DNA of 63,993 bases, filler included, from Bonamia ostreae (GCA_040357525.1; 20 parts of 20 records of this genome joined end to end with filler, not necessarily neighbours in it), one strand, 5' to 3'; shown: positions 1-61,304, numbered from the whole stretch's first letter. The notes: a model not told the origin generated them from the letters alone. A program made the numbers and translations.

Positions 1-32
1 TGTCAAAAAATTTCAAAAAATTTTGGATAAAG

Positions 33-895
33 ATGGATTTCAGTCTAAATGTGCGGAAAAACGAAGAAATCGACCGATTGCAAAGAGACGAAAGAAGATA
101 CGCTTCGAAGATAGTCCAGAAAATAGCCAAAACAGGATGCAATGTCCTTTTGGTGCAGAAGTCGATCATCAGAGACGCGCTCAGTCCGCTTTCGCTCCAT
201 TTTTTGGCGAAGAAAAGAATAATGGTCGTCTCCGACATTGAACGAGATGACATTCAGTTCATCGCAAAAGTTCACCTTTTTGACGAAAGAGCTTAAATTT
301 GCGTCCGATTGCTTCGGTCGACGACTTCGTCTCCGACAAACTGGGCAGCGCGGAGATCGCAGAAGATGAGCAGACAGCGAACGGCGCCATCGTCTCCATC
401 CGCGGGATTCGGAAACAGCGATCTGCTTCCGTCCTCCTCCGCGCCTCCAGCAAAATCGTCCTCGACGAAGCGCACCGCTCGTTCCACGACGCTCTCTGCG
501 TCGTGCGCTGTCTCGTCCGCGTCCCGCGCACGATTCCCGGCGGCGCCGCTGCCGAATCCGAGATCGCCTTCCGGACGCGCCAACTCGCCGAGTCGCTCGA
601 AGGCGCCGACGCGATGTGCGCGAAGGCGTTCGCGGAGGCGATGGAGGCGGTTCCCTTCACCTTGGCGGAGAACTGCGGGCTGAAGCCGTTGGAGATCATC
701 GGAGAGCTGCGAGAGCAGCACGAGAAGGGCGAAGGGCGAATGGGCATCGACGTGCGGAAAGGGAAGGTGGGCGACATGGAGAAGGCGCGGGTGTTGCAGC
801 CTGCTTTGGTGAGTCTGAGGGCGGTGGCACTGGCGACGGAGTGTGTGCGGATGGTCCTGAAGATCGACGGAATAGTTCAGACGGCGAGAGATTAG
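33..895 (+). CDS. CCT4: Chaperonin CCT/TRiC subunit delta, 5'-partial; 20-nt intron 270-289
   Basis: Motifs GCNVLLVQKSIIRDA, DEAHRSFHDALCVVRCLV, PGGAAAE, LATECVRMVLKID. Removing GTTCACCTTTTTGACGAAAG joins FIAK to SLNLRPIAS in frame. Confidence 0.95.
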
Positions 896-1162
896 TAAAT
901 CTGTTGTTGTTCCATCAATTTTACATTTTTTTTATTTTTTTGGTCAAAATGTTCTATTTTTATCATTTTTTGGTCAAAATGTTCTAATTTTGGCCAATTT
1001 TATTTTGTTTGAAACAATCGATTAACAAAAATCAGCAGAAACAATAAAAATGACTTCCACCGATCGAACACTAAAAAGAAAAAATCTGCGCCATTAAAAA
1101 TCGGCTAAACCTTTAAAACAAAAGCTAAATTCGATTATATAAAAATTTTCAAAACAACAAAA

Positions 1163-1641
1163 ATGAACAAAAGTTTTCTGAGTACAAAAGATGCTTTAAA
1201 ACAAGACATTAAAGGCGATTTGACAGAAAATCTTTTAAACAAAATTTCGTCTCTCGAAATCAGTGACATCGAAACCGCTGTCAGACAAGTTACAAAAATT
1301 TTATTTTCCAAAAATCTTAATTCTGAAAAATAAGCGAAAATTGGACGAATTGGAAATAAAGAAGAATTTGCTATCAAAAATTTACGGCGACCATTTCTTC
1401 AATACAATTGACAACGAATTGGTTTCAATGACAAAAAAAATTGCAACAAAATTTTTATTAAAAAATTGCAAAAAAGAAATTTTTTTCGGCGGCGAGCAGA
1501 TTGCCCGGTTTGAAACAAAGTTATTTTGGTCTTGACATCTTGCTAAATTTGGACGAAGATATTGATTTCGACGATATCAACGAAAAAGATATCGTCGAAA
1601 CTTCCAAATTCGATTTGAAAGAGGAACTTGAAAAGCTTTAA
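1163..1641 (+). CDS. UMP1: Proteasome maturation factor UMP1/POMP-like, two introns
   Basis: Spliced translation gives ...KIYGDHF...SRLPGLKQSYFGLDILLNLDEDIDFDDI..., matching the UMP1 C-terminal pattern. Not visible as one ORF in the track. Confidence 0.7.
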
Positions 1642-15339: not shown

Positions 15340-16002
15340 ATGTTCAGTCTTTTCAGGAAACGGTTAAATTTCAATTCTTTACGGTTCTTCTCCAATCGAT
15401 CCAGAGACGCATCGCTAATAATCCCTGGAACCATTAAGCTTAAACCAAAAACTCCGGGAACCAGACATGCGAGATTGCCCGATAAATCAAATTTGTTTGA
15501 TGGTCCCCCGATCGAAGTTATTAAAATCGAAACCAATTAATTTTTTAATCAAATCTTTCCACTTTAAATTTCGTCAAATTTTGATCAATTTTGTGCACAT
15601 TTTCAAATTGGTCGTTTTGGGATTTAAATTTGATCAATTGATGTCGATTCACAATATTCGTGATCAGACATTTAAAGATCGAATTATTGTATATTTTATG
15701 AAGGAATTGACAACGCCGTTAAAAAGAACGGGTGGACGTAATAACCACGGAAGAATAACAGTAAGAGGAAGAGGCGGCGGGGAAAAAAGGGTCTACAGAT
15801 TTATCGATTTCAAAAGAAACATTTATGATACAGGTTCAGAAATTAAACCTTCGAAGATGCCAAAGTAGTCAGACTTGAGTTCGATCCAAATCGATCGTCG
15901 CATATCGCGCTCTTAAAGTATCCGGATGGAAAAGTTAACGACATTTTGGCGCCTGAAAACGTGAAACCTGGAGATGTGATTATATCGAGTAGACAAAACG
16001 AT
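15340..16002 (+). CDS. MRPL2: Mitochondrial ribosomal protein uL2m (nuclear-encoded), 3'-partial
   Basis: Presequence-like [73 protein letters not shown]. Confidence 0.92.
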
Positions 16003-56001: not shown

Positions 56002-57822
56002 ATGTCTGAACAAAACAAAAGGTTCGATTTAAAAATACGCTCTTGTTAAAATTTTTTTCCGATATTTACCGAATTAGCTCTTTTTATAAATTTTAGCCTT
56101 AACCAAATGGTTTTTTGGTTTTGGCATTTTTGAAATTTTTATATCACTTTTTCTATTGTTTTCAGGATGGATTCGACTAATACTTCAACCGAAGTCACAA
56201 ATAATGTCGATTCCAATAATACTTCCGCAAAACTCGCCGGCGAACTTGCCGCAAATGAACAGCCGGTTTGGAAAAAAATCTACGACTCGGCCTCCGCTAA
56301 ATATTATTATGTCAATGCCATCACTAAGGACACGACATGGAACGCCCCTCCGGACTATGTAATTACATTTATTATATTGATTTTGTTAATATTTTTTGTT
56401 TAAGCTTCTATATAATTGTTTGAATTTAATGCTTTATATTTGTTTTGAATTTTAAAAATTTAGTTAAAAATGGCAGTTTGACAATACAAAAAATTAAATC
56501 TAATTTCGGATATTTGAATAATATAAAAAGATTGAAAGGGAAAAAGTGCAGGAAAATATTGAACAGAAAGAAGAGGAAACTCCAAAAAGTGAAACCTTTC
56601 CGAACAAAGAGGAATCGGAAAAGAAAGAAGAACAGAAAGACGAACCCGACAACCCGAACACAAAATTGCAGAAAGAAGACAATATTTACAATTCGAATTG
56701 GCGAACCGCCATAGACCATGATTCTGGAAGAACGTACCACTATAATATGCAAACTGGTCAGACGCAATGGGCGAATCCACGTGATATCGCGCAACATACT
56801 CCAACATCCGGCGATTATGCCTTCCAAAACCAAATAACTGGACGGCGGTTTCATTTTTATTAAATCGATTTTTTTGTAATAAAATTTTATTTTCAAAATC
56901 GATTTTTTTGTAATAAAATTATATTTTCAAAATCGATTTTTTTGTAATAAAATTATATTTTCAAAATCGATTTTTTTGTAATAAAATTATATTTTTAAAA
57001 TCGATTTTTTTTGTAATAAAATTTTATTTTTAAATCGATTTTTTTGTAATAAAATTTTATTTTTAAAATCGATTTTTTTGTAATAAAATTTTATTTTTAA
57101 AATCGATTTTTTCAAAATTTGATTAAAAATCGCTCGCTCCGGTTTCCAATTTTAATCCAAAAATCTCAGACGACGCAGAAGCATGAAGGAAATGCAAGAT
57201 GCGTGGGACAGAGGAGACAGAGTCGGCCTTTGGGAATGCCCCGATTGCTCCAAAATCCTCACCGAAGGCAGCAAGAAAACACACCCCGATTCTTGCAACG
57301 CCCGCAAAGCGCGAAGTGTTCATGTTTCATAACACATTTAAAGATGGTCCAAGGAACTCCCGCCGACATTCTCGCCGGAGCGCATTGGAGAGCTGTCCAG
57401 GACAGAAACGGCCAGACGTACTATTATCACCAAATCACCAAACAAACTTCCTGGTACAAACCGACCGAAATGAGCGTTTGTTTTCCCAATTAAAGAACTT
57501 TGAGCAATATCAGCAAAACCAATCGATCATCCAGACCACTCTGGGCAGCCGAAACGTGGGGTACAATCAGTGGACAGAAGTGACAGACTCGAATGGCCGG
57601 ACTTATTATTACAACAATATCACCGGCGCGACGAGTTGGACGAAGCCGTCGGGGTCGCAGGACGAAAAGGTGGCGCGTCCCGATTCAGTCGGAGACTACA
57701 GCGCGGCTGGCTTCGACGGTCAGCAGAGCAACGTTGGCGAATGGGTTGAAGTGATCGATTCTTCTACTGGCGGAAAGTATTATTACAATTCTGTGACAAA
57801 AGCTACATCTTGGACTAATCCG
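56002..57822 (+). CDS. Multi-WW-domain protein (at least 5 WW) with a C2HC zinc finger, 3'-truncated
   Basis: Five W..(D)..G..YYY.....T.W..P modules; exon from 57169 encodes WECPDCSKILTEGSKKTHPDSC. Confidence 0.85.
56860..57115. repeat. About 35-nt tandem repeat filling a WW-gene intron
   Basis: AAATCGATTTTTTTGTAATAAAATT(A/T)TATTTT, about 7 copies. Confidence 0.92.
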
Positions 57823-57894
57823 GTTCCTTTTTGTTTTATTTAAAAATGGTTGACGTCCTCGTAAATTTTATTTGCGGCGACCAAAATATTTTAA

Positions 57895-58095
57895 TGATTT
57901 TGGTTTAATGTTTTTAGAAAAATTTTGTATAAAAATGGTCGATGTCCTCGAATTTTTGAAATTTATTTGATTTTGGTTTAATGTTTTTAGAAAAATTTTG
58001 TATAAAAATGGTCGATGTCCTCGAATTTTTGAAATTTATTTGATTTTGGTTTAATGTTTTTAGAAAAATTTTGTATAAAAATGGTCGATGTCCTC
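57895..58095. repeat. About 74-nt tandem repeat at contig end (intronic)
   Basis: TGATTTTGGTTTAATGTTTTTAGAAAAATTTTGTATAAAAATGGTCGATGTCCTCGAATTTTTGAAATTTATT, repeated. Confidence 0.9.
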
Positions 58096-59173: not shown

Positions 59174-61304
59174 ATGGCAAACAAAAAAATTAAAAAAAAA
59201 ATCGAACAAACACCACAATCCCTAAAACCCGTTCAAAAATCAAAAAATCCGAAAGAAGCTCAAAACTCCGAAGACAAAAAAACGGAACTTGAAATTGTCG
59301 CTCTAAAAAACAAAATCGTCGCAACAACGAATAAAAGTAATTTGTCAAAAAGACTTTAAAAGACATTGAAAAAGACATTGAACAACTTAAACACAAAATC
59401 AGTTCCGCCGCAAAATCGATGACATCGATTCCAAAACCATTAAAACATTTAAATCCGCATTTTGAAGAATTAAGAAAATTTTTTGACGGATATCAAAATC
59501 CACCAAATTTTTTGGCCGACATTATTAGTTGTTTGGCGATGGTTTCTTCGGAAGAAGAAAATTTATATTGTTTGAAGTATAAGCTCCAAAGCAACAATGA
59601 TGACATATCGCTTTGGGGAGATGATTACATTCGTCATTTGTCAAGAGAAATTATTGCGGAGTCCAAAAAGAGAAGAGAAAATATTATCGAATCTTCGAAA
59701 ATGTTTTTTTATCGATTTATTTATGTCAAAAAAATATTTTTATCGATTTTTTGTGTCCAAAACAAAATTTTTTAATCGATTTTTTTTATGCCAAACAAAA
59801 TTTTTTTTATCGATTTTTTTATGTCAAAACAAAATTAACAAAATCTTTAACGATTTTTAGAACTTCTATCGCAAAGAAAATCGTCGATTTTTATTTTAAA
59901 AACGCCGCTGAAGCGGAAGCCGTCGATCTTTTAGTCGAAGTTTCCCTCAATTTTTAAATCCAACAAAGATCGGCCGATTAGACATTTTATTAGAAAAAAG
60001 CGACAAAGAGTCGGCGCCGAGGATAGCTTCCTATCTGTTTCAATGTCTCCATTACATCCCTTCTGAAATGGAAGATTTTGAAAAAATGGCCAAAACCGCC
60101 TTCGAACTGCACGCTCGTTGCGGCAACTACTCCGAAGCGCTTCTCATCGCTCTTATCGCAAACGACGACGAATTAATAAACAAAGCTTTAAATTCTTGTA
60201 AAACGGACATTGAAAAGCTTCAATTGAGTTATATGGTTGGTTTAACGCGCAACGCGAATGGATACGAAAATTTGAGCGTTTCGGAGAAAATGGTGTCTGC
60301 GGCGGGAAACGAGGATTTGGGGAACTGGTTTGACTTGTTGGCAAAAGAGTTGAGTGTCATGGAGCCGAAGAAAATGGAAGATATTTATAAGTCGCATTTG
60401 ATTGACCGATCTACTTTTGGCAAATGTGCTCATTTTATCCATTCAAATTTTTAATTTTGCAGTCAAATTTTTTCGATATTATCAAATTTATTTTTGTAAA
60501 ATTTTTTTTAATAAATTGTTTTTTTCGATAGTATCAAATTTTTTTTTGTTTTTATAAATTTTTGTTTTTTCGATATTATCAAATTTATTTTTGTTTTTAC
60601 AAAATTTTGCTTTTTCGATATTATCAAATTTATTTTTATTTTTGTAAAATTTTTTTTAATAAATTGTTTTTTCGATATTATCAAATTTATTTTTGTAAAA
60701 TTTTTTTAATAAATCGTTTTTTCGATATTATCAAAATTTTTTCGTTTTTTTAAATAAATTTTTGTTTTTTCGATATTATTAAAATATCTTCTTTGCATTT
60801 TAACAATTTCTAAATAAAATTTTATCAAATTTAATTTGTTGTCTTTAATTTTATTTTTCCGTTTTTTGTTTCTAACTAATTTTTTTGTTAATAAAATTTT
60901 GTATTTAAAAATCTGTTTTTTGATATTTTTGTGATTAAAAAGACGAAAAAACAATACAAACAAGTTCACAAAATCTTAATTCGGCGCGCGAAAATCTGGC
61001 TACAACTTTCGCGAACGCCATCGTCCACGCTGGTTTTGGCAACGACACGCTCGTCTCGCCCGAAGACAGCGACTGGGTTTTCAAAAACAGAGATCGCGGC
61101 AAAGCCAGCGCTGTCGCTTCAATCGGATTGGTCAACATGTGGAAACTCGAAAAAGGTTTCCAAGCCGTCGACCGCTTTTCCGAAAGCGTCGACGAAGAAC
61201 TCAAAGCCGGGTCCCTTTTAGGATTTTCTTTGGTCGGCTGTGGAATAAAGTCTGATTTGGATGCGAGCGCTGCACTCTTGGCGGACCATCTGGAAAGCGA
61301 ATCT
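59174..61304 (+). CDS. RPN1: 26S proteasome regulatory subunit RPN1/PSMD2, 3'-truncated
   Basis: SMTSIPKPLKHL, WGDDYIRHL, AEAEAVDLLVE, MEPKKMEDIYKSHL, NSARENLATTFANAIVHAGFGND. Confidence 0.95.
60465..60800. repeat. Degenerate tandem repeat in an RPN1 intron
   Basis: TTTTTCGATATTATCAAATTTATTTTTG units. Confidence 0.85.

Follow-up and report, generated by a model that had tools for sequence, protein, structure and literature searches.

Why should the silent sites of one exon favor C up to a single nucleotide and G beyond it? The exon in question lies near the start of the window, by which we mean the whole 63,993-nucleotide stretch of Bonamia ostreae DNA analyzed here. The window includes N stretches plus one 100-N gap, and its genes are of ordinary eukaryotic type: CCT4, RPL8, eIF1A, Torsin, RPN1, a mitochondrial release factor and a non-LTR retrotransposon ORF. 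It begins inside CCT4, and the upstream part of that gene falls outside it. A preliminary description of this DNA had noted a GC-rich CCT4 exon at 299..895 with a switch from C-ending to G-ending synonymous codons near 610, and had ascribed the switch to a fixed, strand-asymmetric process such as a replication origin or a double-strand-break hotspot.

By homology, positions 33-269 and 290-892 encode CCT4 (T-complex protein 1 subunit delta), of which they supply the last 280 residues. The Cpn60_TCP1 family (PF00118) scores 176.8 bits for 284-892 and 53.4 bits for 3-293, against a curated cut-off of 34.3. The best named homologues are T-complex protein 1 subunit delta sequences at 49-54% identity; the database returned no close relative, with nothing above 54% identity. 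The locus is laid out as follows.

1-32, plus strand: 3' end of the intron upstream of the penultimate exon, with its acceptor AG at 31-32, placed with X4 contigs
33-269, plus strand: penultimate CCT4 exon (exon A), 79 codons, PF00118, ordinary composition
270-289, plus strand: predicted 20-nt intron, GTT...AAG
290-895, plus strand: last CCT4 exon, 201 codons and the TAG stop (893-895), assigned by PF00118 and homologues; the GC island
896-911, plus strand: 3' UTR (16 nt) and poly(A) addition site, from an X8 RNA contig
927-986, no strand assigned: 30-nt tandem repeat in the AT-rich intergenic spacer, 90% identity, copy number varying by sample
1163-1333, plus strand: start of the next gene, in tandem orientation, with an ATG at 1163 in ORF 1109-1333

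The acceptor at 31-32 is supported by X4 contigs, in which 18 non-window letters precede position 33 and translate (by hand) to S-A-P-K-T-D. This is orthologue-like: in a panel of 98 full-length orthologues (480-560 residues, taken from a set of 240 proteins and chosen by similarity to the last exon), the residues just upstream of the first query residue are SAPKTD in 12 and SPPKTD in 67. Splicing of 270-289 is predicted. Removal of these 20 nt, which have 40% GC, joins ..DDIQFIAK to SLNLRPIASV.., and no other GT..AG removal joins the two frames. An X4 contig at 241-318 crosses the intron unspliced at about 1/10 of the depth of its neighbors, and none of the listed contigs lacks the 20 nt, X4 being a spliced RNA-like run. 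Given this intron, the exon starts at 290 and not at 299 as first proposed, whereas the proposed end stands, 895 being the last base of the TAG.

At the other end of the gene, the X8 RNA contig spans 716-911 and then continues into an A run that is absent from the DNA, which places the mRNA end at 911, 16 nt past the stop codon. The next transcript starts at or before 1137, at most 226 nt beyond the CCT4 poly(A) site, and is represented by an X4 contig at 1137-1206 and by an RNA contig of X8, which shows a GT..AG intron of 55 nt (1421-1475). The X4 contig matching 1137-1206 also carries 30 GC-rich non-window letters upstream, with no canonical splice signal there; this oddity may reflect structural variation, chimerism of the contig or an atypical junction. 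Relative to the window, X2 has 29 extra letters behind 955 and is missing 4 letters at 1004. In X4, cover is missing past about 625, and in X8 it is missing up to about 716; the contigs were filtered, so such absence is no evidence.

The CCT4 intron has counterparts elsewhere in the window, where the frames of RPL8, RF1 and RPN1 likewise connect only across predicted GTT..AAG introns, here of 23-29 nt.

270-289; 15834-15856; 34981-35003; 59940-59968: predicted ultra-short introns, GTT...AAG, in CCT4, RPL8, RF1 and RPN1

According to the excerpted text of PMC13644364, animal introns this short have been reported only in myxobolid myxozoans and a dicyemid. In the myxobolids, which have 29% GC, the median intron length is 22 bp (PMC13644364, in excerpt), and the dicyemid has 36.7% GC and a mean intron of 38 bp (PMC6736024, in excerpt).

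The last CCT4 exon is indeed strongly GC-rich in AT-rich DNA. GC is 0.292 (29.2%) over the whole window and 0.61-0.72 in 100-nt windows from 301 to 850, and 251-900 is both the largest and the richest of the four stretches in the window with GC of at least 0.5. The exon has a GC3 of 0.80, compared with 0.21-0.53 in 29 other exon ORFs (those supported by Pfam out of 135 ORFs scanned; some overlap). Along the gene, GC3 forms a hill: about 0.5 in exon A (0.53 over 33-269), it reaches 0.67-0.87 from 293 onward and 0.93-1.0 at its summit (593-697), then falls to 0.67-0.73 in the last codons. The non-coding DNA after the island (911-1000) has a GC of 0.13-0.30. With composition changing at both borders, the island coincides with the exon, bounded by the 20-nt intron on one side and by the stop/poly(A) site on the other. 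GC3 so far over background is what an island of GC-biased gene conversion (gBGC) would show; gBGC-type spread into adjacent non-coding DNA is absent, both at 911-1000 and in the intron at 270-289. CpG is over-represented window-wide and within the island (observed/expected 1.57), and since no CpG depletion is seen, CpG methylation is probably absent.

Strand asymmetry is similarly confined. GC skew rises from -0.25 at 401-500 to +0.49 at 751-850 and holds at +0.42 to +0.49 across 701-900. It continues neither into exon A, where the sense-strand skew at third positions (skew3) is -0.05, nor into the 3' spacer, where it is -0.17 to -0.33 at 1001-1200. The skew thus crosses downward at both island edges, near 215-290 and 900-1000, and upward within the exon, between two domains.

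290-610, plus strand: C-domain, third positions C61 G22 A12 T12
611-892, plus strand: G-domain, third positions G59 C19 A9 T7

The codon counts that had drawn attention to the switch proved exact on recount. Before and after 610, respectively, Val is encoded by GTC 8 and 1 times and by GTG 1 and 6 times; Leu by CTC 7 and 0 times, the nine Leu codons after 610 being CTG (5) and TTG (4); and Ala by GCC 7 and 0 times and by GCG 3 and 11 times. Arg CGC (7 and 0) and Ser TCC (5 and 0) behave likewise. We located the switch with a change-point test restricted to those codons of A, G, L, P, R, S, T and V that end in G or C (101 in all). Its statistic peaks at nt 611 with 5.80, a value reached by none of 5000 within-amino-acid synonymous shuffles (shuffle maximum 4.64). 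A split at this nucleotide separates C43/G16 on the left from C6/G36 on the right (Fisher p = 5e-9), and the flip coincides with the GC3 peak. A step model has a log-likelihood (LL) of -51.7, compared with -58.3 for a linear-logistic ramp. A four-parameter sigmoid fits best at zero width, with s = 30 nt costing 1.9 LL units and s = 80 nt costing 3.4; with s at or below about 30 nt, the switch is abrupt and takes place within roughly 130 nt.

The two halves are not mirror images of each other. In fourfold boxes, the left half has C.62 and G.23 and the right half G.67 and C.13, compared with a baseline of A.26, C.24, G.23 and T.27 in 27 non-overlapping exon ORFs of the window (the retrotransposon and one WW frame dropped). 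Among twofold codons, those ending in a purine take G at.43 on the left and.90 on the right (baseline.20), whereas those ending in a pyrimidine take C at.81 on the left and.82 on the right (baseline.40). This asymmetry points to an exon-wide pull toward C (or GC), with a pull toward G added in the last 285 nt. With a skew3 of -0.47, the left half stays within the range of the other exons (-0.57 to +0.14), which the right half, at +0.51, exceeds by a wide margin. The true outlier is therefore the G-rich right half, and the left half exaggerates the usual excess of C3 over G3 in the window.

The amino-acid composition is pushed too, beyond synonymous sites. In the right half, G at codon positions 1 and 2 amounts to 0.59 per residue, compared with 0.44 +/- 0.03 (maximum 0.50) in the 98 orthologues. 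Relative to the orthologue means, this half has less Ser (1 versus 4.2) and more Gly (8 versus 4.4) and Lys (7 versus 3.4), with Met and Glu also raised and Thr, Asn, Tyr and Ile lowered. The left half has more Ser (12 versus 6.3) and Arg (11 versus 6.4) and less Gly (6 versus 9.8) and Lys (3 versus 6.5), with Met also lowered. Protein divergence is not faster in the island: the ratio of query-orthologue to orthologue-orthologue identity is 0.74 in exon A, 0.72 in the left half and 0.74 in the right half, values that the choice of panel could bias slightly. RPL8 shows no preference for C- or G-ending codons (fourfold C 8/41 and 3/28), and C-rich and G-rich exons occur regardless of expected expression. 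The unbiased RPL8 and the shifted amino-acid composition exclude translational selection, as the preliminary description had argued on other grounds, and the class of explanation that fits is therefore a pressure on the nucleic acid that differs between the strands.

The switch would be trivial if it came from a chimeric join or from an overlapping antisense gene that imposes its own codon bias, and we find an artefact of either kind scarcely credible. A 3285-nt X1 contig covers 15-3100, and a 2276-nt X2 contig from another study covers 15-2265. Both bridge 610 and show no differences from the window in 15-987, so the entire island is identical in the window and in these two further samples. 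From 988 on, there are 10 differences in X2 (to 2265) and 7 in X1; the between-sample substitutions all lie outside the CCT4 exons. Excess diversity in the island was not seen in X1 or X2, a comparison of low power in which about 2.7 neutral differences are expected (by hand). Long open frames do run on the minus strand, at 262-876 (205 aa) and 296-931 (212 aa), as is expected of GC-rich DNA, which is poor in stops. We rejected an antisense gene: three minus-strand ORFs matched no Pfam families, and the sense frame is well-aligned CCT4 throughout.

Candidates based on structure were likewise rejected. An RNA hairpin between the halves is not apparent, with a minimum free energy (MFE) of -265.2 versus -268.3 +/- 7.0 in 20 shuffles (z = 0.44). 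For selection against local mRNA structure, the mean MFE of 60-nt segments is -17.12 versus -18.25 +/- 0.67, and 3 of 100 synonymous shuffles are as weak; a slight weakening of this kind is expected from the skew itself. A palindrome or inverted duplication fares no better, since the right half and the reverse complement of the left share 42 words at k=6 versus 42.5 in dinucleotide shuffles, and 18 versus 14.8 at k=7, where 84 of 300 shuffles reach 18.

The island shows sharp boundaries at three places (290, next to the intron; 611; and the stop/poly(A) site), as would a mosaic in which ectopic gene conversion had brought in one or both halves from a second copy of CCT4. A processed retrocopy that had evolved in a different compositional or strand context could be such a donor. 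The missing intron and the poly(A) end of such a donor would set the island edges, and a 603-nt intron-free last exon amid frequent 20-29-nt introns fits cDNA-mediated conversion of the 3' end. However, the uniform relative divergence of exon A and the two halves implies that any donor was an equally constrained copy of the same lineage. No second CCT4 copy lies in the window, and scans of public metagenomes returned no relative (0 confirmed of 418 pattern matches in a protein scan, and 0 in a 40-nt exact scan). Conversion would, moreover, merely shift the question to the skew of the donor, and we regard a mosaic origin as doubtful.

A C-left/G-right arrangement is the sign of origin-type upward skew jumps and of divergent CpG-island promoters. 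A fixed bidirectional site near 611, acting through replication initiation or through divergent transcription (internal sense plus antisense), would make each outward 5'->3' strand G-rich. The plus strand does step upward from C to G at 611, the step is the best-fitting shape, and the flip sits at the GC3 peak of 593-697. Origin-type skew, however, lasts for kilobases on both sides, whereas here it stops at the island, having vanished in exon A and turned negative in the 3' flank. A silent-site amplitude of about +/-0.5 over 300 nt is also far beyond known replication skews. Because sense transcription of CCT4 crosses both halves, transcription asymmetry alone predicts a single sign; an internal start or antisense RNA was not seen in the contigs, which cannot show starts or strand. 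We consider a central bidirectional site quite improbable.

The other process first proposed, which we considered as a single central meiotic break hotspot with GC-biased conversion, would explain why GC3 peaks at the flip and why amino acids are pushed toward GC-rich codons. Human hotspots expose single-stranded DNA of the forward strand on the left side of the break, and it is C and A that this strand loses on that side (PMC7615360, in excerpt). By this rule, a break at the flip, with C and A lost from the forward strand on the left and G and T on the right, would leave G on the left and C on the right, the opposite of the polarity observed. The island also does not extend into the non-coding flanks, and no polymorphism was seen in it in X1 and X2. 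A central break is, in our estimation, very improbable. The interpretation put forward in the preliminary description is thus partly supported: a strand-asymmetric pressure on nucleic acid is retained as a class, and neither the replication origin nor the single central break survives in the form proposed.

The right half contains a further element that bears on the cause.

727-744, plus strand (sense, non-template): G-cluster GGG-N4-GGG-N5-GGG, followed by 100 nt with 46% G (to 844)

With thresholds of the QmRLFS type, this G-cluster and the G-rich zone behind it on the non-template strand predict an R-loop. It is the sole such G-cluster site on either strand of the 64 kb, and poly(A) addition (911) follows it by about 170 nt. 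Selection at the nucleic-acid level could have shaped the final, G-rich 285 nt into a terminal R-loop element that aids RNA polymerase II termination before the tandem neighbor about 250 nt downstream, the left half being an exaggeration of the C3>G3 habit. In humans, terminal GC skew is enriched in genes with a tandem neighbor within 2 kb and forms R-loops (PMC3787257, in excerpt), and CCT4 has both a co-oriented 3' G skew and a tandem neighbor well within that distance. Such an element would account for the island ending at the poly(A) site and would agree with the outlying skew3 of the right half beside a left half within the normal range. However, selection per site would be very weak, yet conserved chaperonin amino acids have been changed, which would demand implausibly effective selection. 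The exon-wide GC3 of 0.8 and the C excess on the left would go unexplained, and other terminal exons of the window lack a consistent C-to-G shift, being positive in eIF1A, RF1 and the fatty-acid hydroxylase and negative in USB1, PSD and the WW gene. G-ending codons are, moreover, generally under-represented in the last 15-30 codons of eukaryotic genes (PMC6892556, in excerpt), a tendency that runs against a terminal G-rich element and for which we also rejected a general 3'-end codon effect. On balance, we think it unlikely that a selected R-loop element produced the island.

The reading that we tentatively prefer is that the two abutting domains of about 300 bp were written by a strand-specific, GC-enriching substitution bias in DNA, associated with repair or recombination and conversion at breaks in both flanks. 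None of the mechanisms that we ranked comes close to being probable in its own right, this one included. We infer a mutational or conversional cause, with break or repair zones in the AT-rich flanks, one at the boundary with the intron (around 270-290) and the other in the intergenic promoter region 3' of the gene (around 900-1150). Biased conversion in this locally hot segment would drive the left domain to C and the right domain to G on the plus strand, each exon half being dominated by its nearer flank. If silent-site GC is fixed by any GC-favoring force, the ratio of G to C would be set only by differences between the strands in C-to-G and G-to-C change, and modest repair asymmetries could then yield large skews. 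Which of the two bases is chosen at GC-fixed sites would depend on which strand is exposed or resynthesized. Such a pressure would re-code amino acids of an essential chaperonin without speeding its overall divergence. As a by-product, possibly a self-reinforcing one, the gene would end in a G-skewed stretch prone to R-loops, directly before its poly(A) site.

Several observations argue for flanking breaks. Transferred to this locus, the human-hotspot rule predicts G-rich sequence to the left of a break at 900-1150 and C-rich sequence to the right of a break at 270-290, which matches the observed sign. Breaks so placed would also remove T more strongly than A from the left half, where pyrimidine-ending codons take C at 0.81 and purine-ending codons take G at 0.43. 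Pressure beyond synonymous sites, the absence of translational selection, the GC3 hill, the skew crossings at the island edges and the exclusion of an artefact all point the same way, as do the faint G3/C3 domains in other parts of the window described below. Other observations weigh against flanking breaks. The island ends at the exon edges, whereas a process at the DNA level should spill into the flanks, unless their AT-richness is held by selection on terminator, promoter and splice signals. Two influences that decay and overlap would give a less sharp step at 611 than the one observed; the halves do not mirror each other, with pyrimidine-ending codons on the right still taking C at 0.82; and the island shows neither excess diversity nor faster protein divergence. 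The asymmetry rule itself comes from human hotspots and may not hold here, and the window offers a single case.

How general, then, is the pattern? Change points in the 29 other exon ORFs run both ways, with 12 positive and 13 negative among 25 non-zero values and a best value matched by 11 of 500 shuffles, and we rejected a C-to-G rule for all exons of the window. Local G3/C3 domains elsewhere in the window show weak signs of the same kind. Neighboring codons share the same G3/C3 state in 408 of 740 pairs, versus 380 +/- 12.8 after shuffling (pooled z 2.19; 13 of 1000 shuffles reach this value). Local GC correlates with the slope of the skew (rho 0.29 over 482 overlapping positions in 1500-63993, the overlap inflating the p-value), and the right-minus-left skew is above zero at 11 of 18 GC peaks. 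The correlation and the clustering may reflect splice-signal composition or a faint genome-wide pattern like that of CCT4.

Two other regions of the window stand out in composition. The last WW-domain exon is the second GC-richest stretch (up to 0.63) and passes mildly from negative to positive skew; the WW-domain exons (56134-57840) are flanked by AT-rich tandem repeats of about 30-60 nt (56900-57110 and 57850-58095). At 40775-41968, a 398-codon endonuclease-reverse-transcriptase frame of a non-LTR retrotransposon has a GC3 of 0.21, the lowest of the coding frames examined.

A broader proposal follows if the CCT4 exon is the extreme pair of a more common kind. Genomes of ultra-reduced parasites with introns of about 20 nt might contain domains of less than a kilobase whose composition is strand-specific. 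A fixed process acting on the DNA in both directions would have written them, be it initiation or repair at a specific site or breaks in a pair of flanking zones, and would overrule codon and amino-acid choice even in an essential chaperonin. In a very compact genome, a G-skewed gene end could then be co-opted for R-loop-mediated termination. We offer this generalization as speculation and consider it improbable. A keyword search of open-access text found no prior report of a mid-exon C3/G3 flip (where PMC7447979 speaks of skew, it means protein binding and not bases), and as a single locus within 64 kb the island is, for now, a well-documented curiosity. Abrupt silent-site changes within an exon serve as natural landmarks for the beginning or end of a strand-specific process on DNA. 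Should such islands recur across the genome, they would provide a map of break, repair or initiation sites drawn from sequence alone, in an organism that cannot be cultured or crossed, and they would reveal the reach of non-adaptive nucleotide pressure in re-coding a conserved protein.

The feature is real, sharply defined and unusual, and it relates to known phenomena of strand asymmetry and GC islands. With replication origins and bidirectional CpG-island promoters it shares a step from C to G excess at a GC-rich point. The asymmetries of those systems are small and extend over kilobases to megabases, whereas the CCT4 flip has a silent-site amplitude of about +/-0.5, all of it within 600 nt. 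The CCT4 island also contains an internal strand flip between G and C, which gerbil-type gBGC islands are not known to have. In the Pdx1 region of gerbil and sand rat, gBGC has driven extreme GC islands that alter conserved proteins (PMC6573468 and PMC7403616). The rodent islands share with CCT4 a local surge in GC3 and amino acids dragged toward GC-rich codons, but they involve many genes, non-coding DNA and accelerated protein change, whereas the CCT4 island occupies one exon and shows no acceleration.

The closest parallels concern the strand asymmetry itself. With the terminal-skew genes of Ginno et al. (2013; PMC3787257, in excerpt), CCT4 shares a co-oriented G skew of the non-template strand before the poly(A) site, a close tandem neighbor, and a G-cluster with a G-rich tract. 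It differs from the genes described there in that its element is wholly coding, re-codes the protein and is preceded by an equally strong C skew; it also stands in a 29% GC genome, is unique within 64 kb and has an R-loop predicted from sequence. The break hotspots of Hinch et al. (2023; PMC7615360, in excerpt) show a mirror-type asymmetry at a fixed site on the same sub-kilobase-to-kilobase scale, including the C>G and A>G classes. Their sign is opposite to ours if the break is placed at the flip, and the CCT4 exon agrees with them only if the breaks lie in both flanks.
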